Of a stretch of DNA of 30,630 nt, positions 7,187-27,905 are shown piece after piece (the first letter of the stretch is position 1; each line of letters opens with the position of its first letter). The translations under genes and the position numbers were made by a program. The notes under the pieces are model-generated. The model was not told the origin of the DNA. It worked only from the letters and a program-made list of their open reading frames with translations, and ran no database searches. Origin of the DNA: Candidatus Latescibacterota bacterium (lineage in GTDB: Bacteria > Latescibacterota > CBDEFO01); NCBI GenBank assembly GCA_965237525.1, contig CBDEFO010000005.1, forward strand, positions 1-30,630. Direction: 5' to 3'.

Positions 7187-8751
<1,565 letters not shown>

Positions 8752-8764
8752 ACAGGAAACGTCA

Positions 8765-8790
8765 GTAGGGGCAAACCTGTGTGTTCGCCC
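8765..8790 (+). repeat. GTAG-type REP (GTAGGGGCAAACCTGTGTGTTCGCCC)
   Basis: GTAG 5' motif plus an imperfect palindrome; related copies at 10344 and 29429. Confidence 0.75.
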
Positions 8791-8823
8791 AGTAGATTGG
8801 TACATCCGCCCGGTCCTTGTGAT

Positions 8824-8844
8824 CCCCGATTGAGTCTATCGGGG
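8824..8844. repeat. 21-bp hairpin unit CCCCGATTGAGTCTATCGGGG
   Basis: Near-identical units at 12150-12170 (inverted), 12340-12360 and 23535-23555. Confidence 0.8.
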
Positions 8845-8968
8845 AACGGGGAAGCCCAGAGCGAAGCGAAGGGCCTGCGAAGTTCTAGTGAAGCGATCTT
8901 ATGTTGCAGTTACAACAGATTACAGCACTGCAGATAGGGGCAAAAGCCAGTAGATTCCTGGAGGGATA

Positions 8969-10327: not shown

Positions 10328-10343
10328 CAGTAGATAACGTACA

Positions 10344-10369
10344 GTGGGGGCAGACCCGTGTGTCTGCCC
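10344..10369 (+). repeat. GTAG-type REP variant (GTGGGGGCAGACCCGTGTGTCTGCCC)
   Basis: Stem GGGCAGAC/GTCTGCCC; same family as 8765 and 29429. Confidence 0.7.
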
Positions 10370-10532
10370 TGGTTAGTGGGGTAATTCCTGGTTTTGTAGC
10401 GGCAAGATCAGCTCACCCCAAGGGCATTGAAACACTGTCCCCACATTAATTTTGCAGCGTAACGTTGCTCATATAGTCAGAACACGTGGTTTCACCCCCT
10501 ACAGATGTCTACGTAAAGGCGAAGGGAAAGTG

Positions 10533-11648
10533 ATGAACTCTAAGCAGGCAAAGGCGGTATTGGCGTTGGAAGATGGAACCGTATATGAGGGATATTCGTT
10601 CGGGGCAGCAGGCGAAAGCTCAGGTGAAATTGTGTTCAATACCAGCATGACAGGCTATCAGGAAATTTTGACCGATCCGTCTTACAAGGGACAGATTATC
10701 ACAATGACCTATCCGCTTATTGGCAACTGCGGTGTGAATGAAGAGGATTTCGAGTCGTCGCGCCCTCACGTTGAGGGCTTCATCGTCCGCGAATGCTCCA
10801 GATTCCCCAGCAGTTGGCGCTCCCAAAAGTCACTTCCAGAGTTCCTCAAAGAGTTCGACATCATAGGCATCGAAGGTTTAGATACAAGACAACTTACGCG
10901 CCGTATCCGCATACACGGAGTGATGAACGCCGTCATTTCGACTCTGGACCTTGATCAGGAGAGCATGATAAGAAAGGCGAAAAGCTTCCCGGGTTTGGAA
11001 AAGATCGATCTGGTCAAAGAGGTCACATGCACAGAACCGTACGAGGTGGGTCCGGAAAATCCCCGCTTTCACGTTGTCGCTTTCGACTACGGCATCAAGA
11101 GGAACATACTGAGGAAGTTGGTGGAAAAGGATTGTCGAGTGAGCGTAGTTCCCGCCATCACCACTGCCGAAGGGGCGCTTGCATACGACCCCGATGGCAT
11201 ATTTCTCTCAAACGGACCGGGCGATCCGAGGTCCGTCTCCTACGCCGTAGAGACGTGCAGGGATCTTATCGGAGCCAGACCGATCTTCGGCATCTGTCTT
11301 GGCCATGAGATTCTGGGACTGGCTCTTGGAGCTAAAATCTTCAAGCTCAAGTTCGGACATCGCGGTGCAAACCAGCCCATCAAGGAGATGGACACCGGCC
11401 GCATCCTGATCACCTCCGAAAACCACGGATTCGGAATAGATGGCAGCACACTCCCTGATTCCGTGGAGGCGACCCGGATCAACCTGAACGACGGAGTGGT
11501 CGAGGGTCTGCGGCACAGGGAGTTTCCGGTCTTTTCGATACAGTGCCATCCAGAAGCGTCGCCTGGACCACACGACAGCTTTCACCTCTTTGAGAACTTC
11601 GTGCAGATAATGGAACAGTATAAAAGTAAAGGAAAAATTAAAAAATGA
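10533..11648 (+). CDS. carA: Carbamoyl-phosphate synthase small (glutaminase) subunit
   Basis: Motifs LALEDG, GEIVFNTSMTGYQEILTDPSY, LSNGPGDP, PIFGICLGH, FGHRGANQP and HPEASPGPHD. Start moved to ATG 10533 (GTG 10530 also possible). Confidence 0.97.
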   Translation: MNSKQAKAVLALEDGTVYEGYSFGAAGESSGEIVFNTSMTGYQEILTDPSYKGQIITMTYPLIGNCGVNEEDFESSRPHVEGFIVRECSRFPSSWRSQKSLPEFLKEFDIIGIEGLDTRQLTRRIRIHGVMNAVISTLDLDQESMIRKAKSFPGLEKIDLVKEVTCTEPYEVGPENPRFHVVAFDYGIKRNILRKLVEKDCRVSVVPAITTAEGALAYDPDGIFLSNGPGDPRSVSYAVETCRDLIGARPIFGICLGHEILGLALGAKIFKLKFGHRGANQPIKEMDTGRILITSENHGFGIDGSTLPDSVEATRINLNDGVVEGLRHREFPVFSIQCHPEASPGPHDSFHLFENFVQIMEQYKSKGKIKK

Positions 11649-12094
11649 TAGAGGGCGTAATAAAGACAAGGCTTTCAAGGATAGCAGACGACAGAGGCTT
11701 CTTAACCGAGATACTAAGATGCGATGACCCTCACTTTGTCAAGTTCGGACAGGTCTATGTCACGACAGGCAGAAAAGGTGTGATCAAGGCCTGGCACGCT
11801 CACAGACTTCAGACGGATAACTTCTACGTGATAAAGGGAACCGCCAAAATCGGGCTCCACGACGACAGAGAAGAAAGTCCCACAAAGGGAGAGTATATGC
11901 AGGTAGCTTTGGGAGAAGAGGGCGAGGATGCGCGTTTAACGATCCCTCCTTTCGTCTGGCACGGCTTTATGTCCTTAAGCCAGATGTGCTACGTGCTCAA
12001 CGTGGTCTCCGAGCCATATAATAGAGAAAATCCTGACGAACTTAGAGTCCCGATAGAAGCCTTCGAGGACATCTGGACTATAAAGAACAGGTAG
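11645..12094 (+). CDS. dTDP-4-dehydrorhamnose 3,5-epimerase-like (RmlC) cupin
   Basis: Motifs DDRGFLTE, GVIKAWHAH, DDREESPT and IPPFVWHGF. ATGA overlap with the carA stop. Confidence 0.85.
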   Translation: MIEGVIKTRLSRIADDRGFLTEILRCDDPHFVKFGQVYVTTGRKGVIKAWHAHRLQTDNFYVIKGTAKIGLHDDREESPTKGEYMQVALGEEGEDARLTIPPFVWHGFMSLSQMCYVLNVVSEPYNRENPDELRVPIEAFEDIWTIKNR

Positions 12095-13927: not shown

Positions 13928-13970
13928 GGTCTACAAGGATGATTGGGAAGGGCTACAACGCTTTGAGTGC

Positions 13971-16900
13971 CTACCTCATACTATACAACTTTCTCTGCTC
14001 CTCGTCCAGCGCTCTCCACGCCAAGAACTGCTTCCTGATGTCATTTAAGAAGGCCCGATTCCCCCTGACCCAATACGACCGATCTCCCGATACCCTGCTT
14101 ATATTTAACCTTATCGCAAAGATGCCGTCGGTATCCGACTCTTCGGTCAAAATCTCCACTTCCTGCCTTACTCCCATGTCGAAAGGAGAGAGCCAGACTG
14201 TAAATCTGAGGTTCAAAATTCCCTGTTCATCAGAAAGGGGACGTTCCGCATCAGGCGGCTGACAGTAGAAGCCCCCACCTATGGAGCGCTCTTCGTGCGC
14301 CTCAAAATATTCTCCCAAGAAGGCCCTCAAGCCCAGAGCATCCCTTCTGCTCAGCGTGAAAGGGAGTTCCGAAGATAGAAAATCCCCAGCGGGTTCGGGC
14401 AATCGCCATCTCCTTTCAATCCCGGGGACGCAGAGTTTAGACGCCATCCTCGCCGGATATATCGCCGATCCTATGACCACTACCATGATCAGGAATATAG
14501 TCGCAACAGTGGAAAGAGAAGAATAGTTCAGCGTCATCCCGGGGAGGAGTCCCAACTCTACTATGACCTTCGCCGCTCCCTGACCGATAATGTACCCGGA
14601 TACACCTCCTAAGACTGCGTACACAGCGGCCTCGGCCACAAATAGCCCGGCTATGTGAACCGGTGCAAGTCCCACAGCGTTAAGTGTCCCTATCTCTTTA
14701 GTCCTCTCATAGACCGCGCCTAACATCGTATTGAAGACGATCAGAGCGGCTATGATTAAGGGAATTAAAAGATTCCTCTCTGCCCTGAAAGACTTCATCC
14801 CTACAGAGTTCACGATATATCTGTCTCCATCTATCCCTGCAAATACGTTCAAGCCCAAAAATGACATCAACTCCTCGAGATCCTCCTCTGGATCATCCTC
14901 ATATACGCCTATTGACCTGAGTGACCCCCTCCCTATGGACATGACGACTTCATACGGCAGGATAACTATCTCAGAGGGAGACGAATGGACGAACGAAAAG
15001 TCCTCGTCCCCCCTTTTTCCTATGCCGACAGATTTGCTGTCTGGCACTTGAGCGTCGGGGTCCAGGGGCGTCAAAGGATACCCGTTCAGATCTTCAATCT
15101 TATCGAATCTGTTCTCGTCTATTACGCCGATGACTCTGAACTCCAACCCCCAGACCTTCAATTTGGAATTTTCCCGGTCGTCTTTCCCGATCCCCAACTT
15201 TGAAGCCGCGCTACTTGGGACAATGCAGGCGTCATTTTCGCCCTCTTTGAACCATCTTCCCCAGATCAATGCCTTCTGGGGATGCGTCGCCCGACTCTCA
15301 GAAGCGGAAAGTCCCAATATACCGCTCACTTTAAAAGTGGTGCGACCACTGTGGTTCTCTCCACTAGCAACTCTCTCCAGGACGACAGTCGAACTCCTCC
15401 CCTGACTCCAGATCCTCCACGCCCGGGGAGCTACGTTTTCGGGTCCGTATCTGTCCCTTAATATGTTCAAGACGGGTCTTTCCAGAGGGGTCCATCCAGG
15501 CATCCTAAAAAGGACACCTTCGTACTCAGACCCTTTAGAAAGGAGCCTCCTGTTGAGCCTCAAAGAGGACTTGATGGAAGTAAACGACACTATGGAAAAG
15601 GTCATCAAAACGATCGTTGAAAGGGTCAAGGCCGTCCGGAGTTTCCTCCTTTTCATATTCGACACGCCCACGATGAACGCCGTAAGGAGAGTCTCAGACC
15701 TTTGGAGATCCGCTCTGTGAGCCGCAAGCCGGGGGGATACCGCCTCTCTTATCTGCCTGTTGAACTTCGCAAATCCAATATACATAACGATCGCAGCAAG
15801 GGCTAACACTACGAAGCCTTCAAGTATAATTACAGGATGCAAAGTAAGCTCGAACGCCGGATGCACGTAACGTAAGATTAAGAAGGTCAGGACAAATACG
15901 AGGAAGAATCCCGCTATTTGGCGTCTTATGTCCACAGATCCAAACAGAAGCCTCTCGCAGAAGTAGGAAAAGGGCAAGACTAAAGCCAAAAAGAAGAGGA
16001 CACCGTGCACTACGTCCCCCATCGTATTCTCCACGTCTGTGTACGCTCTGGAGGCATATCCCCACGCCTTCCTTGCAGAATCGGTGAACCGGTCGTATCT
16101 TTTTCCCTTTAAGTATCCCTCAGACTCTGCTAACAGTTTCTCGACCCCTTTGTGCAGGCCCTCTAAACGAGGATTATGAATCCCGTTTCTCTTGAGCTTC
16201 TTTATCCTGCTCTCGTTCAGTAGAAAGGCGTCTAATGCCGCTTGATAAGATGTATGGGTTATGCGATCTGTGCTTTCAACGTCAAATCCCACACCTTGAG
16301 GATCTTCGGGGTTTGAATTGGTGAGAACCATCCTTCTTCCGAGGCCGTATATCCCCGTCGTCATAGTCATCTTGATCTTTTTGTCTGTCTCAGCGAATAC
16401 CACAGCGCACGGTTCCACGTCCGAGAACAGATTATTCGTATATCCAAAGAGCGACACCTCCCTTGGGGTCAGCGGCAGACAATATCCGAACGAAAGGGCG
16501 TCAGCTTCGGTCTTGGCGTCCAACACCTGAATGTCGTCCAGCGTGAACAGATACCTTTGATCTACCATGTCAAAGAGCGTTATCCCTTTACATCTGAACG
16601 TAACGACAGTCACCCGATCTTTCTTACCCGTCATAAGGACATCTGTCGGATAATCTTTGTAGCCCCTTATTCCCATATCGGGGGCATATACTATATCTCC
16701 CGTCTGCTTATCGACACCATAGGCCTCTATCCTTGTCGGCTTGAGATAGATCGTGCTGTGCTCAACTCCCCTGATCTCGAACTTTCCTGAACTATCCGTA
16801 ATCGCAAAGAGATCCCCTCTTACACCCACAAACGCCTTCGTCCTTAATCTTGCCCTGACGATCGCTCCATCTACGGGCACGTCCGGCAGGTAACTCATCT

Positions 16901-18395
16901 TCTCGAAGCTTGCAACCTCTCCCTCTACGATTCCGAAGGAATCCTCCCTCCTCCTGTCCATCGAAGCCTGCGGATCGTCTACAACTTTGGAGACTACATA
17001 GACTAACAGCTTCATCTGCTCTTTCAGATTATCGTAATTGACACTTTGAGGGAGGTCTAACGGAGTGTCCCACAGACGTCTGGTGTCGTTTATAGTCACA
17101 AAAGTAACCGCAAGTTCCCCAGCAAGGTTTATGGCCTCCCCGTCGTAAGCTATATGAGATGGGACCTTCCCTAAGTTTCCCCTTTCCCGTGAGGACTTAA
17201 TACCGTTGTGCAGCATCACTTTTCCCCCGTTCACCCGCTTCTCATATTCCTCGGCATAGGCTATAACTCTTTCAGGTACAGGGGAATCTGCGTGCGCCGA
17301 CCAGGGAATCCTGTAGACCCATCCTCTCTTGGACATACTTAGGACATCCGACCCGCTGCTCAAGTCCAGGCAAACGTACAGATCTATATTATAACCTTTC
17401 AGAAAAGTTAAGAACCTTTGATCCTCAATATTAAGTCCTTCGGTATCACTCCTTAGAAGAGCTACGAAATCCCTTGCCCCTGCAAGGCATTCGAAATGAC
17501 CCGGAAGAGCCAGAAATATCACCGACCTTTTCGGCTTTGTCTTTGCCAGCAACCGGGCCAGCTCTAACAGACCCGCAATCCCGGATGCCTGATCTGCTCC
17601 CGGCGCAAGGGCTGGGACCGCGGAGATCGAATCGTAGTATCCCTCGATCACTACGGCTCTTTTTCTCAACTCTGGATCGCTTCCTTCAATTATCCCCATA
17701 ACCATCGTCCCCGATTTCAACTCCCAATCCATGCGCCCTTCGAGCTGTACTATTTCTCCTCTTTCGGCTAAGATCAGCAAATACTCCCTATCTTTGCTTG
17801 AAGCGTAGAACCTGGGCAGATCGGCTGGAGTCGTCAAAAACTTATCCTCAGCCTGCTTTCTGTAAGTGTCCAGAGGAGAAAGGAAGACCACAGCTTTTGC
17901 CCCTAACATAAATGCGTTCAGCCAGTCCATCCCAGAGTTGAAATCCAGGAGCACAACGCTCCCCTGCATCTCCTGTCCGTTCAACTCCCGGAGCTCCCCT
18001 TTCCCTCCATATATGATTTTTCCCTCGACGCTGCAAGTAGAAGTCCTCGCCATATTGGGCCATACGGCATATATATCTATCACTCTGCCGTCAGACAAAC
18101 TCTTTATCGTCCCTCCCCTATCCACAGGCACAGGGATCTCGAACGATCTGTGGACAACATCGCCCAGACCTGATTCCTTGAAGCTGTCGTAGATATACAT
18201 TCCCGCCCTTTCGCTTCCCTCATAGCCAGTGACCCTCGACCCTAATCGCGCCATGTCCCCTATGCTCTCCCTTAACCTGCTTTCGTCCACAGAGTACGAG
18301 AGCTTCCAATACTGGTCTTGCCCAGCCACGGATAAAGTGGCAGTCATCAACAATATTAAAAATAGAATTGTGAACGTATTACGCGCGTTTTTCAT
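13971..18395 (-). CDS. Large membrane protein: signal peptide + M28 peptidase-like domain + beta-sandwich + TM bundle + MacB/FtsX-like ABC permease domain
   Basis: N-terminal signal peptide; M28-like YYDS..APGADQASGIAGLLELAR..SVIFLA; carboxypeptidase-regulatory-like PVDGAIV..ITDSSGKFEI; MacB TM1 SNMKRRKLRTALT; FtsX signature NTMLGAVYERTKEIGTLNAVG and AIYPARMASK. Confidence 0.88.
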   Translation of the reverse strand: MKNARNTFTILFLILLMTATLSVAGQDQYWKLSYSVDESRLRESIGDMARLGSRVTGYEGSERAGMYIYDSFKESGLGDVVHRSFEIPVPVDRGGTIKSLSDGRVIDIYAVWPNMARTSTCSVEGKIIYGGKGELRELNGQEMQGSVVLLDFNSGMDWLNAFMLGAKAVVFLSPLDTYRKQAEDKFLTTPADLPRFYASSKDREYLLILAERGEIVQLEGRMDWELKSGTMVMGIIEGSDPELRKRAVVIEGYYDSISAVPALAPGADQASGIAGLLELARLLAKTKPKRSVIFLALPGHFECLAGARDFVALLRSDTEGLNIEDQRFLTFLKGYNIDLYVCLDLSSGSDVLSMSKRGWVYRIPWSAHADSPVPERVIAYAEEYEKRVNGGKVMLHNGIKSSRERGNLGKVPSHIAYDGEAINLAGELAVTFVTINDTRRLWDTPLDLPQSVNYDNLKEQMKLLVYVVSKVVDDPQASMDRRREDSFGIVEGEVASFEKMSYLPDVPVDGAIVRARLRTKAFVGVRGDLFAITDSSGKFEIRGVEHSTIYLKPTRIEAYGVDKQTGDIVYAPDMGIRGYKDYPTDVLMTGKKDRVTVVTFRCKGITLFDMVDQRYLFTLDDIQVLDAKTEADALSFGYCLPLTPREVSLFGYTNNLFSDVEPCAVVFAETDKKIKMTMTTGIYGLGRRMVLTNSNPEDPQGVGFDVESTDRITHTSYQAALDAFLLNESRIKKLKRNGIHNPRLEGLHKGVEKLLAESEGYLKGKRYDRFTDSARKAWGYASRAYTDVENTMGDVVHGVLFFLALVLPFSYFCERLLFGSVDIRRQIAGFFLVFVLTFLILRYVHPAFELTLHPVIILEGFVVLALAAIVMYIGFAKFNRQIREAVSPRLAAHRADLQRSETLLTAFIVGVSNMKRRKLRTALTLSTIVLMTFSIVSFTSIKSSLRLNRRLLSKGSEYEGVLFRMPGWTPLERPVLNILRDRYGPENVAPRAWRIWSQGRSSTVVLERVASGENHSGRTTFKVSGILGLSASESRATHPQKALIWGRWFKEGENDACIVPSSAASKLGIGKDDRENSKLKVWGLEFRVIGVIDENRFDKIEDLNGYPLTPLDPDAQVPDSKSVGIGKRGDEDFSFVHSSPSEIVILPYEVVMSIGRGSLRSIGVYEDDPEEDLEELMSFLGLNVFAGIDGDRYIVNSVGMKSFRAERNLLIPLIIAALIVFNTMLGAVYERTKEIGTLNAVGLAPVHIAGLFVAEAAVYAVLGGVSGYIIGQGAAKVIVELGLLPGMTLNYSSLSTVATIFLIMVVVIGSAIYPARMASKLCVPGIERRWRLPEPAGDFLSSELPFTLSRRDALGLRAFLGEYFEAHEERSIGGGFYCQPPDAERPLSDEQGILNLRFTVWLSPFDMGVRQEVEILTEESDTDGIFAIRLNISRVSGDRSYWVRGNRAFLNDIRKQFLAWRALDEEQRKLYSMR

Positions 18396-18438
18396 GGACT
18401 TAACACAATCGGGGATTATCCTTTTTTTTGTGCTTCAA

Positions 18439-19137
18439 TCACGTAAAGTGAAGATCGACACCATAAAGAATCAATCCTAGCTTCTTCGCTACACTCTGTG
18501 ATACAACGTTGTCCCACGATGTGCTGTAAAGAGGTATTCGGCCAAGTTCGCGGACAGCTATTGCCCAACCAGCAACTACGTTAGTAGCGTACCCTCTACC
18601 TCGATAATCTTCCAGGGTCTCAACCCCGGCCTCGTCTGCCTGTGGGGAAATGCGTACACTGCAACAGAAAGACACTGCTTTTCCACTCTCTACTACAGCT
18701 ATACAAGGCTGACTCAACTCTACCCAGGAATCATAATCTGTAAAGCCAAATCTCAAAAGTTCTGCATTTTCCTTGGTAACTCTCACAGCGTTTGTAGGAC
18801 ACCTGATATCGTCAGGGAATCGGTATGCTGGTCCCATCCACACCTGCTGAATCTCTGTGTGTGCCTGTAGAACGTTCTTGAAAGCCTCGAAATTGATCGG
18901 GTTCTCCAGAAGGTTAGTAGGGATAGGCTCTGAGGAAAGCAAATCATCCAACTTACTAACCACGTCTTCCGGCAGATCATACCGGAAACGCCAAATGCTT
19001 CCCTTTTTAGTTCGTCCCAAGAAGAATCGTGGTGCAGGAGACCTTTCAGGTTCGTTGACGTATTGGAGCCGCCCATTTTCGTCGTGGGTGAAGAGAGCCT
19101 CAACCTGTATTTCCATCAGTCTAAAGTCAGATGTCAA
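18439..19137 (-). CDS. GNAT-family N-acetyltransferase
   Basis: Acetyl-CoA motif EAGVETLEDYRGRGYA and YSTSWDNVVSQSVAKKLG. TTG 19137 follows AGGAGG. Confidence 0.88.
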   Translation of the reverse strand: MTSDFRLMEIQVEALFTHDENGRLQYVNEPERSPAPRFFLGRTKKGSIWRFRYDLPEDVVSKLDDLLSSEPIPTNLLENPINFEAFKNVLQAHTEIQQVWMGPAYRFPDDIRCPTNAVRVTKENAELLRFGFTDYDSWVELSQPCIAVVESGKAVSFCCSVRISPQADEAGVETLEDYRGRGYATNVVAGWAIAVRELGRIPLYSTSWDNVVSQSVAKKLGLILYGVDLHFT

Positions 19138-19250
19138 TGTAATTGCCCTCCTATACAATAGACTGTCTATGAAGGCGGAACCAGGATAACCCTGCCCTTA
19201 AATTGTCAACGTTCGACCTTTTGAGGCCCCCTAAGACAGCGGAAGATCTG

Positions 19251-19529
19251 TCATAGACTTTTAAGCTTCCTTTCAATGTATCTCCTGTGAACGACAGTAA
19301 TAGCTACAATAGTTTGAGAATCTATCCTATACAGAATTCTGTAATCTCCCACTCTCAGACGGTAAAGAGCAGGATCGAACCCCTTCAGCTTCTTTATCCT
19401 AGTTCCAAAAGGATAGGGATCATCGGCAAGGGCTTTAATCGCCTGCAATACTCTCATCCGGATCTGGGCATCAATAGCTTGTAGGTCGTTTTCCACCGGC
19501 CTTGCTATCTTAACTTGAAAGCTCGGCAA
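19251..19529 (-). CDS. RelE/ParE-family type II toxin
   Basis: 92-aa basic protein with LADDPYP..IKKLKG..LYRLRVGDYRILYRI...VVHRR; overlaps the upstream antitoxin. Confidence 0.92.
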   Translation of the reverse strand: MPSFQVKIARPVENDLQAIDAQIRMRVLQAIKALADDPYPFGTRIKKLKGFDPALYRLRVGDYRILYRIDSQTIVAITVVHRRYIERKLKSL

Positions 19530-19788
19530 TTTCCTTCTCCGTCTGCCTTATCATATCCTCGATGTCAATCCCACCATTTTCCCGATAGACTTTATAGTCT
19601 GACTCCACTTTTGCCCTTATTTCCGGGTGATTTTCCAGAATATAATCCTCAAGCTCATCCTCCCGCAGATTCCTCAGAATCGCCTTTGGCTTTCCCCTGT
19701 AAGTTATGACTATCTCCTCACCTTTGTCCGTCTGACGTAGAATCTCAGATATCTTAGCCTTCAACTCCCTGACATTTACAAATCTCAC
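19510..19788 (-). CDS. Phd/YefM-family antitoxin
   Basis: VNVRELKAKISEIL...GEEIVITYRGKPKAIL with an acidic C-terminus. GTG start after AAGGAG. Confidence 0.92.
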   Translation of the reverse strand: MRFVNVRELKAKISEILRQTDKGEEIVITYRGKPKAILRNLREDELEDYILENHPEIRAKVESDYKVYRENGGIDIEDMIRQTEKEIAELSS

Positions 19789-19808
19789 CTTGCGTCTCCT
19801 TTCATTTA

Positions 19809-19828
19809 GTGACTACATTAGTGGTCAC
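19809..19828. promoter_or_regulatory. Putative autoregulatory operator of the TA operon
   Basis: Inverted repeat GTGACTAC-ATTA-GTGGTCAC (7/8) about 20 bp upstream of the antitoxin start. A possible TTGTAG-N17-TAAATT promoter lies just upstream on the minus strand. Confidence 0.55.
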
Positions 19829-19894
19829 ACAAAATTTAATACAAAATCCATCCCTCTACAACAAATTTAAGAGCCGAACGCCTAAGCAATACAG

Positions 19895-20185
19895 CTACAT
19901 AGAATATTCTTGGACGATCTTACCGCCGACGGTGAAACACAAGCCCCCACCCATTTGATAATCTACTCACCGAGGATTATACGCCGGCAACAAGGCTTTG
20001 CTCTTCGAAACATCACCTCTCCGCCATATTGGACGATAATCCACTTAATTAGCAACCCGACTAACGTCTAACCCCATATTCTCTGGCTGAAGCCGGCAGC
20101 AAAGATGTAACCGATAGTATAAAATGGACACCTTGAGGAAGGATTACCTCACAATCATAAAGAAACACACAAAAGAAAAAGCCCG
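19895..20185 (-). pseudogene. Decayed C-terminal fragment of a paralog of the 650-aa DUF6785/DUF6784-type gene
   Basis: Translates as CPFYTIGYIFAAGFSQRIWG*TLVGLLIKWIIVQYGGEVMFRRAKPCCRRIILGE*IIKWVGACV...GKIVQEYSM*. This is colinear with WPFHPIGYIFAMGFGKAIWGSILVGWFMKWIIVKYGGAVIFRRAKPFFLGLILGELTMKLVWACV...GKIGEGYGM* at 21528-21826. Confidence 0.88.
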
Positions 20186-20201
20186 CCGTCTGTGGCGGGC
20201 T
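20171..20201 (-). terminator. Rho-independent terminator downstream of the VOC-tag pair
   Basis: Minus strand AGCCCGCC-ACAGAC-GGCGGGCT followed by TTTTCTTTT. Confidence 0.65.
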
Positions 20202-20331
20202 CTGATGCATCAGGGGCCAAAATGGGCCGCTGTCTGCAAATCTCTCCCCGGGGCAAAGTGCTGAAAGTATCCGGAGGGTGTGATTCAGAAGATGGAATAC
20301 ACACAAACCTTCTTCTACTGAAGACCAGGAA

Positions 20332-20844
20332 CTACATGTCGTGCTCTTCTCTCCAACGCTCCATCGTCTCGGGCATCTCCTCCCCCACCGCCCTCATAAA
20401 GAAAAAGGAAGTCGAACTTCCCAGATGTGAAAAGCGCTTGCTCAGGGTCTTTACGAGCTCTCCCTCACCGTTTGCGCTGATTTCCTTAAGAAATACTTCG
20501 AACGATCCATGCTCTTTCTGTATGGTCAACAGTGTTCTGGCGTTTTCGATAGCGGCCCTGATCTTTCGACCGTTCCGGACGATGCCCTTGTCGCTCATCA
20601 GCCTGTCAAAGTCTGGCTCATCAAACACAGCGACCTTGGCAATCGAAAAATCGGCGAAGGCCCTCCGAAAGTCAGGCCACTTTTTCTCAATCACCTTCCA
20701 GTTGAAGCCGGCTCGAAAGACGGCCCTGGTCATCTCTTCAAAATGGCGGTCGTCATTGTCGGGCCTCGTGCCGAGCACGCAATACTTCATGTCAGATAGT
20801 GCGGACGAAGCTGTCGCGCCTGTTCCACGATCTTGCATATCCAT
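20332..20844 (-). CDS. DNA-3-methyladenine glycosylase I (Tag)-like protein
   Basis: Motifs FEEMTRAVFRAGFNWKVIEKKW..FRRAFADF, GIVRNGRKIRAAIENAR and LSKRFSHLG...FFMRAVG. Confidence 0.85.
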   Translation of the reverse strand: MDMQDRGTGATASSALSDMKYCVLGTRPDNDDRHFEEMTRAVFRAGFNWKVIEKKWPDFRRAFADFSIAKVAVFDEPDFDRLMSDKGIVRNGRKIRAAIENARTLLTIQKEHGSFEVFLKEISANGEGELVKTLSKRFSHLGSSTSFFFMRAVGEEMPETMERWREEHDM

Positions 20845-20849
20845 GCTCC

Positions 20850-21215
20850 TTAGTCATGGTTCTCCGGCTGCCAGAGTGCGAAGGCAGCACCGGTTGGGTC
20901 TATCATAACGCTGAAGCGCCCGTAATCCGGAATCTCTGTCACCTCGCGAACGATCGTACCTCCTAATGACTTGGCCTTCTCGGTTGAGGCGGAAACATCT
21001 TCAACCTGAACGTAGGCCAGCCAATGCGACGGAACGCCCGGAACGGGATTCTTCATCATCCCGCCGCCTGTACCTTCCCCCACCTCGATCATTGTGTATG
21101 TGGTCTCGTCCATCGGGATGTCTTGAAGCTTCCAGTCAAATAGACCAGCGTAGAACTCCTTCGCAGCAGCCACATCTTCCGTGAGAAGTTCAATGTGCAC
21201 GAATGCATTTGCCAT
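20850..21215 (-). CDS. VOC / glyoxalase-bleomycin resistance family protein
   Basis: Motifs FVHIEL.T.DV.AAKEFY..LFDW, WLAYVQVEDV and GRFSVMIDPTGAAFALWQ. GGAGG RBS. Confidence 0.93.
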   Translation of the reverse strand: MANAFVHIELLTEDVAAAKEFYAGLFDWKLQDIPMDETTYTMIEVGEGTGGGMMKNPVPGVPSHWLAYVQVEDVSASTEKAKSLGGTIVREVTEIPDYGRFSVMIDPTGAAFALWQPENHD

Positions 21216-21372
21216 ATATGCCCTCCTTCCTTAAAGATGCTTTGCATCTTGATTTCTGGGACCAGATTATTGGGTCCCACTATAGATAATCGTCCTCTTT
21301 GTGACGAGTCTCAGCTTTAGTCCGGTTCTGTGTTGTCTACAATACGAAACCAGAAAGCCGCTATTGTACGTA

Positions 21373-21401
21373 ATATTAAGAAAGTCTCGGCCCTGTGTCA
21401 A
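21373..21401 (-). promoter_or_regulatory. Possible sigma70 promoter for VOC-tag
   Basis: Minus strand TTGACA-N17-TAATAT. Confidence 0.45.
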
Positions 21402-21527
21402 TATCTTTTCGATAGCTCTCTATGCATTTCAGGCTGGAACACTCCTGCAACGAATTTCAGTAATCGGATCAGACGGGACCTTTTCGGCAGATAGGGTGCA
21501 CTGACCCTCGGAGTGGAAGTCTAATTT

Positions 21528-23480
21528 TCACATGCCGTAACCTTCGCCAATCTTTCCCGCAAAAGTGCCGACACAAGCCCACACCAATTTCATAGTCAAC
21601 TCGCCTAAGATGAGACCCAGGAAGAATGGCTTGGCCCTTCTGAAGATCACCGCTCCGCCGTATTTGACGATAATCCATTTCATAAACCATCCCACTAATA
21701 TCGAGCCCCATATTGCCTTGCCGAATCCCATCGCAAAGATGTATCCGATAGGATGAAATGGCCACCTTAGGAAGAATTTCCTCATAATCGTTAAAAACCA
21801 CACGAAAGAGAAACCCACAAAATGGAAGAATATCCTCAGCCAGTCCGTAGGGGATTCAAGATCTCCCGCGGACTGATAGGAATAGGGGTAGTACCTCCCT
21901 ATTCTGGCCTCGGAGAGAGCGCCGCCTTCGTTATCCAATACAAACATCCCGTATTCGTAGATCGTGTTCAAAGAGAAATAATAGCCCACAAACAGACCGA
22001 CAAGGAGACTCATAACGAGAGCGATGGTCATCTTTCCCGTCTTTATCCCGACCTCCTCTCCTATCTTCCACCCTTCAAGCTGCATTGCAAGGCACGTCCC
22101 GAGACAGCCGTAAGTCAGGATGTTCAGGTGAGCGAAGACTACATAATCGGATTCGCCATAGACTCCGGGTCCCGTCCCACCGACTATGTAAAAGAGATGC
22201 GACACCATGGGCAGGCCCAAAAATAGAGGGATCCCCCCATCTACCCTAAGACGGGCGATCCCTATCGAAAAGATGACGAATAGGCCAAAATAGATCAGTC
22301 CCAGATGAAACTTCAATCCTGCGGCATAAGACCAGAACGAACAGAATAGGAGGGAGGCGGCCAGACCCACAAAAGCCCAACGTGGAGGGTCTTCTGCAAG
22401 GTGCGTTGGTCTTCCCAGCCCTCTGAATATCCCCAAAAGATGAGACCTTGCAGCCCACAGGCTCAGTACGACCAGACATATTATTCCACCCCTTGCCTGG
22501 GAAAAGAGGAACGGAAAATGTGGCGGCCACTCCAGACCGAAGGCCTTGCACACACCTCTGTTTTCGGTCAAACCAAGAAGCTCGGTGGCCAGAAGCTGAA
22601 CCCTGGTCATAAGAAAGAAAAACCAGATACTGAACGAGATCTCAAGCGACAGCAGATACGCGATTCCGACTATCATCGGAGAAAAGTCGAAGACGAATCT
22701 CGCCTCAAACGCCGCCATCGCCTTCCAGGGCTCTTCTAACAGAATCTCCCCCATGTCCAGCGAGGTACTTATCTCTCCGACCTGCGGAAAGTAGTGATGA
22801 ACGCCATTTATCGTGAATATGATAACTGGAACGGCGAAGCCCAGCCACATCAGCCTGTTCTTGAGGAACGCCTTCCCCTCTAACATCGCCCTGGGAAGCT
22901 CCAACATCGGAAAGCTCAGCCCTTCGTTTTCGGACCACTGCCGCCTCAGGATGATCCCTATGCACAACATACCTGCAAAGACTGCTACAAAAAGCAGTGA
23001 CCACAGAAAAAGAGGAAAAATCCAGTGCTCCCATGGCACAGGGCCACCCTCAAAGAAATCCACTGCCACCTGGCTTTTCACCTTACCCGGAACCATCCAT
23101 TCTGGGATAAACTCTAAGAACCTGAAATACCTCCCTGTCTCGCGGTAGAAGGGCGAGCGCCCGAAGCTCGTTACCAGCCCCGGCAGGAATCTGTGAACCA
23201 GCCCCACAGAGGCTAAGGGCAGGGAGATGACCAGCGCAGAATATATAAGAACCAACTCCGCCTTGCCGAGACCGGGTCTTTCGTTCAACTTCCGCAGCAG
23301 CCCCCCTATCAGCAGCAGAAGAACAAGGACGCCTATTCCACCGGCGGGAGGAACGTGATCGGACAGCTTTGGCCCCGCGTAGACCAACTCGTTCTTCTGA
23401 GTCCACATTCCCACAAGGACTGTGAAGAATATGAAGATTAACATAGCCCTGATTGTAAATCCAGATTTATCGTTTGACAT
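21528..23480 (-). CDS. Polytopic membrane protein, DUF6785/DUF6784-type (putative transporter)
   Basis: Many hydrophobic helices, with family-typical W..PL..W...LC...ILRRQW.E.E.L.FP..ELP and C-terminal WPFHPIGY...K..IVKYGG...FRRAKPFFLGLILGE. Confidence 0.8.
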   Translation of the reverse strand: MSNDKSGFTIRAMLIFIFFTVLVGMWTQKNELVYAGPKLSDHVPPAGGIGVLVLLLLIGGLLRKLNERPGLGKAELVLIYSALVISLPLASVGLVHRFLPGLVTSFGRSPFYRETGRYFRFLEFIPEWMVPGKVKSQVAVDFFEGGPVPWEHWIFPLFLWSLLFVAVFAGMLCIGIILRRQWSENEGLSFPMLELPRAMLEGKAFLKNRLMWLGFAVPVIIFTINGVHHYFPQVGEISTSLDMGEILLEEPWKAMAAFEARFVFDFSPMIVGIAYLLSLEISFSIWFFFLMTRVQLLATELLGLTENRGVCKAFGLEWPPHFPFLFSQARGGIICLVVLSLWAARSHLLGIFRGLGRPTHLAEDPPRWAFVGLAASLLFCSFWSYAAGLKFHLGLIYFGLFVIFSIGIARLRVDGGIPLFLGLPMVSHLFYIVGGTGPGVYGESDYVVFAHLNILTYGCLGTCLAMQLEGWKIGEEVGIKTGKMTIALVMSLLVGLFVGYYFSLNTIYEYGMFVLDNEGGALSEARIGRYYPYSYQSAGDLESPTDWLRIFFHFVGFSFVWFLTIMRKFFLRWPFHPIGYIFAMGFGKAIWGSILVGWFMKWIIVKYGGAVIFRRAKPFFLGLILGELTMKLVWACVGTFAGKIGEGYGM

Positions 23481-23515
23481 AGAGGTGACGAAGATAAGAT
23501 GTTCTTGAGCGTGCT

Positions 23516-23574
23516 TCCCCGATTGACCCCCAATCCCCTATTGAATCTATAGGGGATTGGGGGTCAATCGGGGA
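23516..23574. repeat. Perfect 26-bp-arm palindrome built from nested hairpin units inside a REP half
   Basis: TCCCCGATTGACCCCCAATCCCCTAT-TGAATCT-ATAGGGGATTGGGGGTCAATCGGGGA, flanked by GCTT...TCGCTCGCAATGAC. Confidence 0.85.
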
Positions 23575-23667
23575 TCGCTCGCAATGACATTTGAAACACC
23601 AAAAATTCTGTGAACATTAGAATATAGCCATGCAGTAACATCCTGTCTACAGTTTTCCTTTGTACAC

Positions 23668-23696
23668 AAAAAAACCCCGAACAGAGTGTCCGGGGT
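23668..23696 (-). terminator. Rho-independent terminator after ccdA-tlpA
   Basis: Minus strand ACCCCGGACA-CTC-TGTTCGGGGT plus a T-tract, about 25 bp after the tlpA stop. Confidence 0.8.
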
Positions 23697-23721
23697 AATT
23701 ATCTCTACAGAGGGAATTCTA

Positions 23722-24420
23722 TCAGGATTTCTCATCTTTCGAAGTCTGTGCAAGCAGAGCCTCAACGCTCCTTTCAAAGACTTCTAAATCGTTCGGGACT
23801 CCCACAATCCTCAGATATATCTTTCCTTCCTTGTTCAAAATAAAGGTCGTCGGTATCACCCCCCTTACAGGAGCGTCGCTCAAATAAGGTTCTGTTTTGC
23901 CGGGAATGTACTGAGGTACCCCGGTCACAGTGAAGAAATCCGTTAGCACTAAGCCCTTATCATCCGCTATAGTGACGGTGTAATTCATCTTATTATCCTT
24001 TACGAATTCCCTCACATTGTCCAGCCGATCGTTCACCGTCACACCCACCATCTCGAATCCCTTATCCTTATACTTTTTTTGAAGCCTTATAAAATGGGGA
24101 ATTTCGAACCTGCACGGGCCGCACCAGGTAGCCCAGAAGTCCACTATTACCACTTTGCCCTTGTAGTCCGACAGCTTTACATCGTTCCCATCTATGTCCT
24201 TCAGTGCAAAATCGGGCGCAGGCTTTAAATCAGAGGCTAAACTGTGGAGTCTGGCCTCTCCTATCTTGGAATCCTCTGTCTTTGATTCTTCAGTCTTGGA
24301 AACCTCAGTCGTGGAATCCTCCTGGGAAAGAACGCTATGCTCCTGAAGAAACAGGACATATAGAACCAGAACACCCAGAATAATCAGAACGAGCCGGCCG
24401 ATAATCTTTGTTCTTTTCAC
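23722..24420 (-). CDS. TlpA/ResA-like membrane-anchored thiol-disulfide oxidoreductase
   Basis: N-terminal TM anchor, APDFAL, VVIVDFWATWCGPCRFEIP (CxxC) and IPTTFILNKEG. Confidence 0.93.
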   Translation of the reverse strand: MKRTKIIGRLVLIILGVLVLYVLFLQEHSVLSQEDSTTEVSKTEESKTEDSKIGEARLHSLASDLKPAPDFALKDIDGNDVKLSDYKGKVVIVDFWATWCGPCRFEIPHFIRLQKKYKDKGFEMVGVTVNDRLDNVREFVKDNKMNYTVTIADDKGLVLTDFFTVTGVPQYIPGKTEPYLSDAPVRGVIPTTFILNKEGKIYLRIVGVPNDLEVFERSVEALLAQTSKDEKS

Positions 24421-24446
24421 AGTTTAGATCTCCTATTGTTTTAGGC

Positions 24447-25172
24447 TTATCCTACATTCAGCCATGGAAAGAGTCTTATTATATATATAGACAGGACGTT
24501 CAGATAGTTAAAGAATATCATGAAACCTACGAGCACTAAAAGGGTTCCGCTGGCTATCTCTATGGCCTTAAAGTACCTTTTTATCCTCGCAAAGACGCTC
24601 AGAAATCTATTGATGCCTATTCCCGTAAGGAAGAAGGGAATCCCCAGCCCTAAAGAATAGGCGCTCAAAAGCTTTATCCCTTCCCACACCGTCTCCTCTA
24701 TCATCGCCAGACCCAAAATCCCGGCAAGGATAGGTCCCACGCACGGCGTCCATCCGAAGGCGAAGGCCAGGCCTACTAAGAACGTCCCCAGGAGTCCCAC
24801 AGGCTTGTTTGAGGCATGAAATTTTTTCTCATAGTTCAGAAACCTTATCTTGAAGACCCCTGCCATATGCAGCCCGAATATTACGATCACGACCCCCGCT
24901 ATCTTGCTTAAGACGCTCATCTTCGACAGCAGAAGCTGACCCGCAAACGTGGCTGTCGCCCCCAGAGCCACAAACACTATTGAAAAACCTAAGATAAAGG
25001 CGAGCGAATTGAGCATAATTCTCCTCAGTGTCCGGGAGTTATCCACGCTCATCTCCTCCATCGAGAGTCTAGATATAAACGAGATATAGGCGGGGACTAA
25101 AGGAAGCACACAGGGAGAAACGAACGAGATGATCCCGGCTCCGAATGCCGCTATGAGGGATATGCCGTCCAA
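24447..25172 (-). CDS. ccdA: Cytochrome c biogenesis protein CcdA (DsbD-beta)
   Basis: Motifs AGIISFVSPCVLPLVPAY, FAFGWTPCVGPIL and YSLGLGIPF. TTG start after AAGGAGG. Confidence 0.93.
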   Translation of the reverse strand: MDGISLIAAFGAGIISFVSPCVLPLVPAYISFISRLSMEEMSVDNSRTLRRIMLNSLAFILGFSIVFVALGATATFAGQLLLSKMSVLSKIAGVVIVIFGLHMAGVFKIRFLNYEKKFHASNKPVGLLGTFLVGLAFAFGWTPCVGPILAGILGLAMIEETVWEGIKLLSAYSLGLGIPFFLTGIGINRFLSVFARIKRYFKAIEIASGTLLVLVGFMIFFNYLNVLSIYIIRLFPWLNVG

Positions 25173-25332
25173 TTTTGTACGCCTCCTTTAGATTGTATTT
25201 ATTGCAGATTAGAATTCGTGTATGAACAGTCTATCACACTTTATCTTTGACTATGCGGCGGCGCTTTAGTTCCAGAGCTTGCCTAGTTTATTGTATCAGA
25301 CAGCAAGGAGGTGCCGCTCCCACCTGTTTACC

Positions 25333-27885
25333 TTAATCTAAGCCCAACCCTAACTGCAAATCGTCTATATCATCCACTTTGCCGTCTCCGTCCTCTTCGT
25401 CCAACTCCCCATTACCTTCAGAATCTACCTCACCCTCTTCTTTGAGCGCCACGCGGGCCACGTCTATAACCTTGTCCTTCTCGTCCAGCTTGATCAGCCT
25501 TACGCCCTGAGTGTTCCGGCCTATGACGCTTATTGCTCGGACAGGCTGTCTCATGATTATCCCGTTTTGAGATATGATTATCAGCTCGTCCTCATCCACG
25601 ACTTCTTTAACACTGATGACCTTGCCGTTCCTCTCATTCGCCTTGATGGATATTATCCCTTTGCCGCCCCTATGCGTGACTCTGTAGTCCGATATCTGGC
25701 TCCTTTTGCCGTAGCCGTTTTCACACACAGTCAAAATCGTCCCCTCTCTTCTGACGATCATCATTCCGACAACTTTGTCGTCCCCATCCCTTAGGCTTAT
25801 TCCTCTTACCCCTTGAGATGTTCTGCCCATATCCCTCACCTCAGACTCGTCAAATCTGATCGCAAAACCTCCCTGAGTCACAAGGACGATCCCCTGAGTC
25901 CCATCTGTTATCGCGGCATCTATCAGAGAATCCCCATCCACGATATTTATCGCCCTGATTCCGGTCCTCATGGGACGGCCGTAAGCCGAAAGGACGGTCT
26001 TTTTGACCAGTCCCCTCCTGGTCGCCATAACCAGATAGTGATCGTCATCGAATACCTTAACGTGGACGAACGCCTCTATCCTCTCACCCGTTTCGACCTG
26101 AAGAAGATTCACAATCGGCCTACCCCTTGCAGCCCTTCCGCTTTCGGGAATCCCGTAAACTTTCAGCCAGTAGCACTTCCCCCTGTCCGTGAAGAACAGC
26201 ATGTAGCTGTGAGTCGAGGCTATAAAGAGATGCTCTACGAAATCCTCCTCCTTCGTCGTCATCCCCGTAATACCCCTTCCTCCACGCCTTTGCCTCTTGT
26301 AGGTGCTGACGGGAAGTCTCTTTATGTATCCCGCATGCGATATGGTGATGACCATATCCTCTTCAGCTATCAGGTCTTCGATGTCGAACTCCGCGCCGGA
26401 AGGGACGATCTCCGTTCTCCTTTCGTCCCCGTACTTTTTCTTGAGCTCGGTTAACTCCGACTTTATAATTTCCATCCTCTGGGGTCTGCTATCTAATATC
26501 CCCCGAAGCTCCGAGATGTTCTTAATCACCTCCAGGTATTCGTCATCCACCTTCTTCCTTTCGAGGGCTGTGAGTCTCTGGAGCGTCAAATTCAAGATAG
26601 CCCGCGCCTGTGTCTCGGAAATGTTGGATGACGACTCTGTCTGAAACGCATCCATGAGTTTGACTCTGGCATCGTCGGGGCTGTCGGAACCTCTGATTAC
26701 CCGTATCACCTGGTCTATGTTATCCAGAGCTATTTTGAAGCCCTCCAATAAATGCGCTCTGTTCTCGGCTTGAGTCAGGTCGTAGCGCGTCCTCTTACGA
26801 ATGACCTCGTGCCTGTGATCCACAAAATGAGAAAGCATCCCCTTGAGGTTCAAGACTACGGGACGATTATTCACAAGCGCCCTTTGGATGGCATTGAAGC
26901 TCGTCTGAAGCTCGGTGTGCTTATACAGTTGATTCATCACCACGTTGGGGTAAGTGTCCCTCTTAAGCTCGATTACAATCCTCATCCCGTCTCTATCGGA
27001 TTCGTCCCTCACATACGCCACGCCATCTATCCTCTTATCGCTTACGAGATCCCCTATCGACTCCAGAAGATGGGACTTATCCACCAGGAACGGAATCTCG
27101 GTTATGACTATGTTCTCCCGTCCGTTCTTCAGAGTCTCTATGCTGGCTCTTGCCCTTACCACAATCCGTCCCGTTCCCGTCCGGTAGACGTCCCTTACAC
27201 CGTCCATGCCGTATATTATGCCTCCTGTCGGAAAGTCAGGGGCTTTGACGTTCCCCATCAATTCGTCGTCTGAGATATCGGGGTTGTCAATTAGGGCCAC
27301 TATGCCATCTACGACCTCTTTAAGGTTGTGAGGAGGAATCGCGCTGGTCATCGCTACGGCGATACCCCAGGTTCCGTTGCATATCAGATTCGGAAAGGCC
27401 CCGGGCAGTACCTTCGGCTCCTGCCTGGTATCGTCGTAGTTTGGTACAAAGTCCACCGTCTCTTTTTCTATGTCCTGAAGCATCTCCACTGCAAAGGCAG
27501 TCATCCGGGCTTCTGTGTATCTCATCGCCGCGGGACGGTCGGGGTAATCTATAGAGCCGAAGTTTCCCTGACCGTCCACAAGCCGGTACCTCATCCTGAA
27601 ATCCTGCGCCATCCTGACCAGCGTCGGATATATCCCCTGCTCACCGTGTGGGTGGTAATTTCCCGATGTATCGCCCGCTACCTTGGCGCACTTTCTATAC
27701 TGCCTCCCCGGTGTCAGATTCAGATCGTTCATCGCCACAAGGATGCGCCTCTGTGACGGCTTCAGGCCGTCCCTGACATCCGGCAGGGCTCGATCTATAA
27801 TGGTACTCATCGCGTACGCCAGATACGATTCTTTCATCTCATCTTCAAAATTGACCCGAATAACTCTGGATCGCTGCGCCAACAT
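25333..27885 (-). CDS. gyrA: DNA gyrase subunit A
   Basis: Motifs RALPDVRDGLKP, YHPHG, AAMRYTE (catalytic Tyr), GyrA-box QRRGGRG, beta-pinwheel repeats and an acidic tail. Confidence 0.97.
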   Translation of the reverse strand: MLAQRSRVIRVNFEDEMKESYLAYAMSTIIDRALPDVRDGLKPSQRRILVAMNDLNLTPGRQYRKCAKVAGDTSGNYHPHGEQGIYPTLVRMAQDFRMRYRLVDGQGNFGSIDYPDRPAAMRYTEARMTAFAVEMLQDIEKETVDFVPNYDDTRQEPKVLPGAFPNLICNGTWGIAVAMTSAIPPHNLKEVVDGIVALIDNPDISDDELMGNVKAPDFPTGGIIYGMDGVRDVYRTGTGRIVVRARASIETLKNGRENIVITEIPFLVDKSHLLESIGDLVSDKRIDGVAYVRDESDRDGMRIVIELKRDTYPNVVMNQLYKHTELQTSFNAIQRALVNNRPVVLNLKGMLSHFVDHRHEVIRKRTRYDLTQAENRAHLLEGFKIALDNIDQVIRVIRGSDSPDDARVKLMDAFQTESSSNISETQARAILNLTLQRLTALERKKVDDEYLEVIKNISELRGILDSRPQRMEIIKSELTELKKKYGDERRTEIVPSGAEFDIEDLIAEEDMVITISHAGYIKRLPVSTYKRQRRGGRGITGMTTKEEDFVEHLFIASTHSYMLFFTDRGKCYWLKVYGIPESGRAARGRPIVNLLQVETGERIEAFVHVKVFDDDHYLVMATRRGLVKKTVLSAYGRPMRTGIRAINIVDGDSLIDAAITDGTQGIVLVTQGGFAIRFDESEVRDMGRTSQGVRGISLRDGDDKVVGMMIVRREGTILTVCENGYGKRSQISDYRVTHRGGKGIISIKANERNGKVISVKEVVDEDELIIISQNGIIMRQPVRAISVIGRNTQGVRLIKLDEKDKVIDVARVALKEEGEVDSEGNGELDEEDGDGKVDDIDDLQLGLGLD

Positions 27886-27905
27886 CTCTTTTCCTCTCTT
27901 TTTAA

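Follow-up and report, generated by a model that had tools for sequence, protein, structure and literature searches.

Introduction

ABC (ATP-binding cassette) systems of type VII, among them LolCDE, MacB, FtsEX, YbbAP-TesA and BceAB-BceS, combine an FtsX-type module of four transmembrane segments (TM), a periplasmic core and a coupling helix with a LolD-like ATPase; they can pair two different permease chains, as in LolC/E, and the partner sets their function. Here we analyze the window, the whole 30,630-nucleotide contig CBDEFO010000005.1 (C5) of a Candidatus Latescibacterota bacterium (assembly GCA_965237525.1, hereafter G000), in which two large genes lie co-oriented on the minus strand. One codes for a 1474-aa fusion of an M28 peptidase-like outer region to an FtsX permease (FUS), the other for a 650-aa protein of the DUF6785 family. 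The system to which they belong is built on the type VII plan, and it departs from the described members in four ways: one permease has no periplasmic domain, and to the other are added an outer region of 770 aa, three further TMs and a tail in the cytoplasm; a predicted OPT-fold carrier serves as partner; several paralogs appear to share one mini-permease; and the ATPases score below all NCBIfam equivalog cut-offs.

The partner resembles carriers of the OPT/YSL family (TC 2.A.67). Characterised OPTs are importers (PMC9691689, PMC3061005), and barley Yellow Stripe 1 (YS1; PDB 7wsr/7wst) is a proton-coupled, dimeric importer of the elevator type (PMC9691689); prokaryotic OPT genes often adjoin peptidase genes, and OPT-peptidase operons and fusions are known (PMC3061005). 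The DUF6785 protein is predicted to share the fold of YS1 over the whole chain; it is only 13–15% identical to it, has no Pfam OPT match and, unlike this stand-alone proton symporter, is genetically tied to an ABC motor. ECF group II importers offer a further precedent, since one shared energising module serves many scattered substrate modules; the logic is the same as here, but the folds are unrelated, FtsX and OPT taking the place of EcfT and S-components. Finally, M28 peptidases and their inactive relatives, nicalin and the transferrin receptor, have in common with FUS an M28 fold with a PA insertion in a membrane-anchored outer domain, whereas the conserved site of FUS differs from theirs (Y/H, E/D, H, F, D, D) and its M28 part is fused to an ABC permease. 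Text searches of the literature, with most subscription papers and supplements outside their reach, found no paper naming DUF6785, and searches of the same scope did not find the combination of an FtsX-like permease, M28, an oligopeptide transporter and PqqD.

We propose, with a probability of about one half, that the system carries out ATP-assisted nutrient import by an OPT-fold carrier together with a giant type VII ABC permease, and that the window holds an accessory, substrate-specific module of this modular uptake machine.

The 650-aa Protein Has a Predicted OPT/YSL Fold

The window had previously been read from its sequence alone. That sequence-only reading described the M28/TM bundle/FtsX fusion and the co-oriented DUF6785 protein, and open reading frames (ORFs), Pfam and hydropathy agree with it: Pfam matched DUF6785 (residues 9–511) and DUF6784 (551–642) on the 650-aa protein, and Peptidase_M28 (232–316) and FtsX (1212–1320) on FUS. 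It also suggested a comparison of the 650-aa protein with OPT/YSL transporters, which proved informative. An AlphaFold2 model built from 68 sequences (pLDDT 93.6, pTM 0.93) gave only two Foldseek matches with E <0.001, both of them barley YS1 (7wst/7wsr; E 7e-10, TM-score 0.67–0.72), and an independent wide fold search (VIA) placed YS1 at Z 25.4 (rmsd 4.0, 560 residues aligned), with the runner-up at Z 6.0. Because YS1 is the sole strong fold match, DUF6785/DUF6784 can be regarded as a remote OPT-fold family, and the 650-aa protein is predicted to consist of a YS1-type core plus scaffold. At the level of sequence the relationship is hidden: Pfam OPT (PF03169) did not match the protein, and a PDB profile search with DUF6785 returned no match, YS1 included.

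The family is expanded here. With the Pfam model, G000 has 13 full DUF6785 copies and one fragment, and there are 21 matches in G003. A DUF6785 protein is also listed for the cultured Chthonomonas calidirosea. A quick tree put the window copy in a separate clade B (SH-aLRT 100), apart from the 12 other copies of the genome, its nearest row being the gene of locus L091 in genome G002. Tandem DUF6785 arrays occur at L257 (G000:C8:703578-717675) and L259; in the former the genes are interleaved with repeated 650–860-aa exported proteins, the two scanned having no Pfam match at E 1e-12, and with a 97-aa fragment of a DUF6785 5′ end.

FUS Keeps Its Coupling Helix and Has a Remodelled M28 Site

Hydropathy of FUS revealed a signal peptide and seven hydrophobic segments: the 3-TM bundle (residues 795–873), FtsX TM1 (923–941) and TM2–4 (1210–1312). 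Profile matches of the permease part were to MacB, YtrF, LolF and LolC, and a FUS paralog has a Pfam match to MacB_PCD. In an alignment of 193 FUS sequences, which are not independent and are rich in clade B, the coupling helix is intact, with E1230, R1231 and G1242 present in 193/193 and E1234 and I1235 in 191/193. The M28 fold is supported by hhalign (probability 97.7). Its metal site, however, is remodelled to Y253, D268, H300, F301, D344 and D443, the register of the last coming from a weakly aligned stretch, so the canonical two-zinc set (H, D, EE, D, H) is not kept. Across the alignment the canonical ligand positions read Y129/H52, E158/D20, H190, F149/H30, D190 and D190. The outer-domain site is conserved without being a standard two-zinc site.

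In an AlphaFold2 model of region 482–800 (pLDDT 90.9), a transthyretin-like sandwich precedes a second beta domain, and a stalk of three helices comes last; the fold matches of this region are generic. VIA aligned the sandwich with a carboxypeptidase D domain (Z 8.8, rmsd 2.1, 78 residues), tied with other generic matches, and a PDB profile search with the region was without match. The cytoplasmic C-terminal domain had no relative in the PDB profile search and no usable match in the ESM Atlas, and FUS as a whole had no NCBIfam match. The family is large (668 matches at 90% clustering; 1,216 representatives at 50%), and G000 carries a second copy at C8:1833324-1837967. In Poribacteria (L059:8657-16183 and other loci), fusions of ~2,500 aa contain large insertions and match LysM weakly, and others reach 3,053 aa. 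A complex prediction of FUS residues 720–950 with the 650-aa protein scored 0.00 with the controls not folded, and counts neither for nor against an interface.

OPT-Fold Genes Adjoin FUS in 76 of 80 Loci

We analyzed the neighbourhoods of the best 80 of 626 confirmed FUS loci, with 21 of 64 parts of the collection scanned. A Pfam-blank membrane protein of ~660 aa follows FUS in 70/80 loci and DUF6785 lies within 4 kb in 27/80. The former, which we call OPT-like and treat as a second OPT-fold family, is homologous to DUF6785 over 557 columns (probability 96.1, E 3e-9); Pfam OPT matched 3 of 29 members, weakly, and a PDB profile search yielded nothing. Altogether a gene of either OPT-fold family adjoins FUS in 76/80 loci, and three of the four exceptions end ≤245 bp from FUS. 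Also recurrent are a 330-aa protein (35 loci), PqqD (33), an ATPase (28) and mini-FtsX (18), a 4-TM permease without a periplasmic domain. In the ESM Atlas the 330-aa protein matched unnamed clusters only; the PqqD protein shows a likeness, scoring below cut-off, to lasso/PQQ peptide chaperones. No LolA, MacA/TolC or EnvC partner was found among the recurrent neighbour families scanned.

The association also holds when the carrier is taken as the starting point. Among 77 metagenome DUF6785 loci (43 of clade B, 34 other), FUS is found beside 20 of the 23 clade-B genes with at least 3 kb of upstream sequence (24/43 overall), and beside none of the 20 other genes with that much sequence (0/34 overall). 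Furthermore, all 12 DUF6785 proteins longer than 1,200 aa carry FtsX; these proteins and P0331 belong to one lineage of single FUS-DUF6785 chains, joined by a short cytoplasmic linker. The suggestion in the sequence-only reading that the two families co-occur is therefore borne out by both surveys: they are syntenic and sometimes fused. Its proposal of an ancestral DUF6785-DUF6785-fusion locus is not supported. That order occurs in 0/80 loci, the sole locus with two upstream copies reads DUF-FUS-DUF-FUS, and in the nearest relative (L091, genome G002) DUF and FUS follow each other intact, 52 bp apart, with no second DUF copy. The commonest partner, the OPT-like family, had been overlooked, as had mini-FtsX, the 330-aa protein, PqqD and the relation of the window pair to a core copy on contig C8.

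A TonB-receptor-like gene flanks six clade-B loci. Around the other DUF6785 genes, 63 annotated neighbours include nine TldD/PmbA in six loci, two S9 peptidases, GH4, GH20, GH95, a melibiase, a lactonase and an aldolase. In L140, L151, L152, L157, L159 and L171, TldD/PmbA stands directly upstream of DUF6785, a candidate peptide-uptake subtype. In Armatimonadota loci, prepilin-type DUF1559 genes follow the operon.

A Putative Motor with a Single-Copy Mini-FtsX Is Encoded Elsewhere in the Genome

The sequence-only reading had noted that the window lacks an ABC ATPase, and none was found among its 25 ORFs scanned. All recurrent genes of the system are nevertheless found in G000, dispersed over contig C8, including mini-FtsX (G000:C8:1116069-1116761) and a LolD-like ATPase (C8:1115143-1115931), with a sister ATPase on C3 (C3:188735-189451). 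The assignment of the LolD-like ATPase to FUS is by synteny only; a separate LolD-like ATPase branches outside the ATPase clade of the system. The sister (L097:6727-7473 = G000:C3:188726-189472) has no permease beside it, and its orthologs are near or adjoin fusion paralogs in G017 and G040. It is a candidate to drive accessory fusions or to make up one half of a heterodimer. Both the C8 and the C3 ATPase have intact Walker A, Q-loop, signature, Walker B and His switch motifs.

Among 41 genomes of the phylum, FUS is present in 32, mini-FtsX in 28 (single copy in every one) and the ATPase in 28, with a second paralog in 16; in the 26 near-complete genomes each of the three occurs in 19. Family f6 has neither FUS, mini-FtsX, ATPase nor DUF6785 (0/9), the last being searched for in 15 of the 41 genomes, and the OPT-like gene is missing in all four of these nine genomes in which it was looked for. 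As f6 is one lineage, this absence counts as one loss. The asymmetry of copy number is seen in G044: each of its seven FUS adjoins DUF6785 or is fused to it, and the genome has five OPT-like genes and two ATPase matches, but a single mini-FtsX/ATPase pair with the one mini-FtsX. The phylum of G042 has one FUS in 32/32 genomes, plus one to six DUF6785 matches in each.

The Window Pair Is Likely an Accessory Module

A quick tree, which gave long-branch warnings, places the window FUS together with eight loci labelled Latescibacterota or Gemmatimonadetes in a long-branched clade B, and the C8 copy among core copies labelled Latescibacterota. DUF6785 is present in all eight of these clade-B loci and the OPT-like gene in seven, while the motor, 330-aa and PqqD genes are present in none; motor genes are likewise found in 0/43 clade-B loci of the carrier-first survey. 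Genomes with clade B also carry core FUS copies. In the congener G001, a sister species, both clade-B genes are broken, DUF by two nonsense codons plus a 36-nt deletion and FUS by one nonsense codon plus a frameshift, and its core FUS is intact, so the pair behaves as a dispensable unit. Since mini-FtsX stays single-copy even alongside seven fusions, what the window contains is likely an accessory module relying on a shared motor, and the window FUS-DUF6785 pair is likely an accessory paralog of the core copy on C8.

Inserted Genes and a 3′ Remnant Separate the Two Large Genes

The interval from DUF6785 to FUS contains VOC, tag, Phd, ParE and GNAT genes (Table 1). They had been taken for accessory insertions, in keeping with the different set in G001, which retains VOC, tag, the remnant and a diverged antitoxin, without ParE and GNAT. 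The gap between clade-B FUS and DUF6785 draws insertions in other genomes too; in L002, L004 and L005 it holds, on the opposite strand, a DppA-type D-aminopeptidase (M55) gene. For the GNAT protein (18439-19116), similarity to the kasugamycin N-acetyltransferase AAC(2′)-IIb reaches E 9e-75 and 251 bits, below the cut-off of 390. The hairpin behind tag would, as a consensus match, split the DUF and FUS transcripts; single sites of this kind are weak, as the scan counts for promoters and terminators are near background (15 vs 11.6; 14 vs 10.1).

Table 1. Position of the two large genes, the domains of FUS and the intervening features in the window.
Feature	Position	Strand	Basis
Clade-B protein with DUF6785+DUF6784 (650 aa), a predicted carrier of OPT/YSL fold	21528..23480	-	Pfam, AlphaFold2, Foldseek, tree
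VOC/glyoxalase gene, accessory; promoter-like site at 21401-21373	20850..21215	-	Pfam; consensus scan
tag-like methyladenine glycosylase gene, accessory	20332..20844	-	Pfam
Terminator-like hairpin 3′ of tag, abuts remnant	20178..20203	-	Consensus match only
Non-coding 3′ remnant of DUF6785 gene, codons 555-stop	19897..20183	-	tblastn, nucleotide alignment
Phd/YefM antitoxin and ParE/RelE-type toxin pair, accessory; toxin missing in G001	19251..19788	-	Pfam, G001 comparison
GNAT acetyltransferase gene, likely start 19116; missing in G001	18439..19158	-	Pfam, NCBIfam, G001 comparison
FUS, 1474 aa, clade B	13971..18395	-	ORF, Pfam, tree
Putative signal peptide or anchor of FUS, aa 1-25	18321..18395	-	Hydropathy
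M28-fold domain with PA insertion, aa ~30-480	16956..18308	-	Pfam, profile matches
Transthyretin-like (prealbumin) beta-sandwich, aa ~486-601	16593..16940	-	AlphaFold2, VIA
Second beta domain (aa ~602-712) and three-helix stalk (aa ~715-795)	16011..16592	-	AlphaFold2 model; fold of beta part tentative
Extra 3-TM bundle, aa ~796-880, strongly conserved	15756..16010	-	Conservation, hydropathy
MacB/FtsX permease module: TM1, periplasmic core, TM2-4, coupling helix	14436..15638	-	Pfam, profiles, alignment
Conserved cytoplasmic C-terminal domain, aa ~1322-1474; DUF6785 attaches here in natural fusions	13974..14432	-	Alignment, fusions

The sequence-only reading had also reported a decayed second copy of the DUF6785 gene. 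The match is real and well beyond chance (tblastn E 2e-15), with two in-frame stops and two 1-nt indels, but it comprises only the last 287 of 1953 nt (211/286 nt identical to the gene end), and no trace of the 5′ 85% of a second gene was found. With 15% of the gene left, we discarded a full second copy. Mismatches to the gene number 19/96, 20/95 and 36/95 at the three codon positions, and between G000 and G001 the remnant (251/286 identical) diverges faster than the gene end (275/289). Both observations fit neutral decay of a duplicated 3′ end, and a once-functional paralog is not required. The remnant begins at the hairpin behind tag, and the most plausible account is that the VOC-tag insertion left it there as a 3′ end that had been duplicated or displaced.

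Directly upstream of DUF6785, genes for a ccdA/dsbD-TM and a TlpA-like thioredoxin protein (23722-25172, minus strand) end in a terminator-like hairpin (23696-23674); they are outside its recurrent neighbour families. An insertion sequence (IS) transposase gene (DUF772/DDE; 27959-29359, minus strand) lies between gyrB and gyrA, with near-identical copies on other contigs, and gyrB-gyrA is uninterrupted in G001. Positions 13935-27901 are 94.6–95.9% identical to G001, compared with 98% for gyrB and 98.8% for the core fusion, and are possibly an exchanged or faster-evolving region. A standard pyrR-pyrB-pyrC-carA cluster followed by an RmlC-like cupin gene occupies 7235-12094 (plus strand).

Discussion

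Gene content, synteny, natural fusions, co-loss, co-decay, copy-number asymmetry and the intact ATPase and coupling motifs tie FUS to OPT-fold carriers and to a motor encoded apart from the window, which likely powers the module as a shared mini-FtsX and LolD-like ATPase. We propose that FUS and the single mini-FtsX would form a LolC/E-like heterodimer on a dimer of the C8 or C3 ATPase. The remodelled M28/PA outer domain would act as the receptor for an oligomeric nutrient, e.g., a peptide or oligosaccharide; ATP-driven mechanotransmission would then hand this nutrient to the OPT-fold elevator carrier, or gate it, through physical contact; and the DUF6785 carrier, alone or with the OPT-like protein, would move the nutrient inward. 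Import is favoured because of the predicted OPT fold, the expansion of the DUF6785 family, the TonB-receptor-like neighbour and the neighbours of the other DUF6785 genes.

Several observations weigh against this proposal. Type VII ABC systems typically move no substrate across the inner membrane (PMC12646458), and the import scheme does not account for the cytoplasmic PqqD and 330-aa proteins. With one FUS in each of 32/32 small genomes of another phylum, housekeeping seems a better fit than optional feeding. The fused proteins, being one lineage, probably count as one event, and they are outside clade B. Clade-B loci are mostly close relatives, and the link with TonB (at least 70% identity) probably goes back to one ancestral linkage. 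In the survey around the other DUF6785 genes, 92 of 137 proteins had been picked by hand, without background control. Within clade B, L127-L129 have no FUS within ~9 kb upstream. As for the window itself, the two genes are 3.1 kb apart with the terminator-like site between them, and the OPT-like third gene is missing.

Alternatively, the same machine might work outward or in envelope building. PqqD and the 330-aa protein would then recognise a peptide or glyco-compound in the cytoplasm, OPT-fold subunits would export or flip it, and the motor of type VII would extract it or hand it on in the periplasm, like LolCDE. Such a role agrees with the fact that type VII systems pull molecules out of the membrane (PMC12646458), with the frequency of PqqD and the 330-aa protein among the 80 loci and the resemblance of the former to peptide chaperones, with the invariant single FUS and with the DUF1559 genes in Armatimonadota. 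It is at odds with the expansion of DUF6785, often amid catabolic genes, with the 80 loci, in which no conserved precursor or biosynthetic genes were seen, and with the absence of PqqD and the 330-aa protein from clade B, and we consider it unlikely. A looser coupling is also conceivable, in which the motor has a regulatory and not a driving role: the M28-like domain would be an active hydrolase or a sensor switched by ATP, similar to FtsEX/YbbAP, and neighbouring proton-driven OPT carriers, not bound to the motor, would import the fragments. The near-invariance of H300, D344 and D443 (190/193 each), R439 (193) and E/D268 (178), with the first His kept in 52/193, means that a new catalytic site is possible, and OPT-peptidase operons and fusions are on record (PMC3061005). 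Nevertheless, all or nearly all sequences have other residues in place of both glutamates of the canonical EE motif and of the last His, and loose coupling leaves the strict co-absence and the extra conserved TM bundle unexplained, which makes this version improbable.

FUS might instead be a factor of membrane-protein biogenesis or quality control, a bacterial analogue of the nicalin/NOMO (BOS) complex, with DUF6785 and OPT-like proteins as clients that are independent proton symporters. The M28 region does match nicalin (E 3.5e-6) and the transferrin receptor (E 2e-4), the 482–800 model matches chain 9c7u_B of the BOS complex (E 3.5e-4), and one motor for many OPT-fold genes would suit a chaperone. 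These matches are weak and not the top ones, however: active aminopeptidases outscore nicalin (E 3.5e-17), and 9c7u_B ranks 13 among generic prealbumin folds (TM-score 0.20/0.31). In a literature search on nicalin, the word was absent among the matches listed. Moreover, there would be little need for seven client-linked paralogs, or for covalent 1:1 fusion, if FUS were a catalytic chaperone, and we judge the analogy quite improbable. The window genes could also be a relic, no longer a working pair in this genome, considering the inserts and terminator-like site between them, the two pseudogenes in G001 and the absent OPT-like gene; but both frames are intact here with their conserved residues kept, and in G002 the DUF-then-FUS order is intact and adjacent, so that a relic is very improbable.

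ATP-assisted import by the giant permease and its OPT-fold carrier is thus the reading we retain. A more far-reaching form of it, which we put forward tentatively and hold to be rather doubtful, is a new importer class: a type VII ABC mechanotransmitter would directly drive elevator-type OPT-fold carriers, one mini-FtsX/ATPase motor would be exchanged among receptor-permease paralogs and dozens of carriers, and the whole would be a core feeding machine of several uncultured phyla. The system can be classed as a type VII ABC system with a new class of partner; if ATP drove an elevator carrier directly, it would belong to a new category. If our reading is true, the joining of type VII ABC systems, which typically act in the periplasm, and OPT carriers, known as proton symporters that work alone, is a new way of coupling ATP to transport, and it would provide a fold and a function class both for DUF6785/DUF6784, with up to 21 matches per genome, and for a gene that is single-copy in 32/32 genomes of one phylum. 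To this the window contributes a modular view, that of a dispensable paralog with its own clade of carriers.

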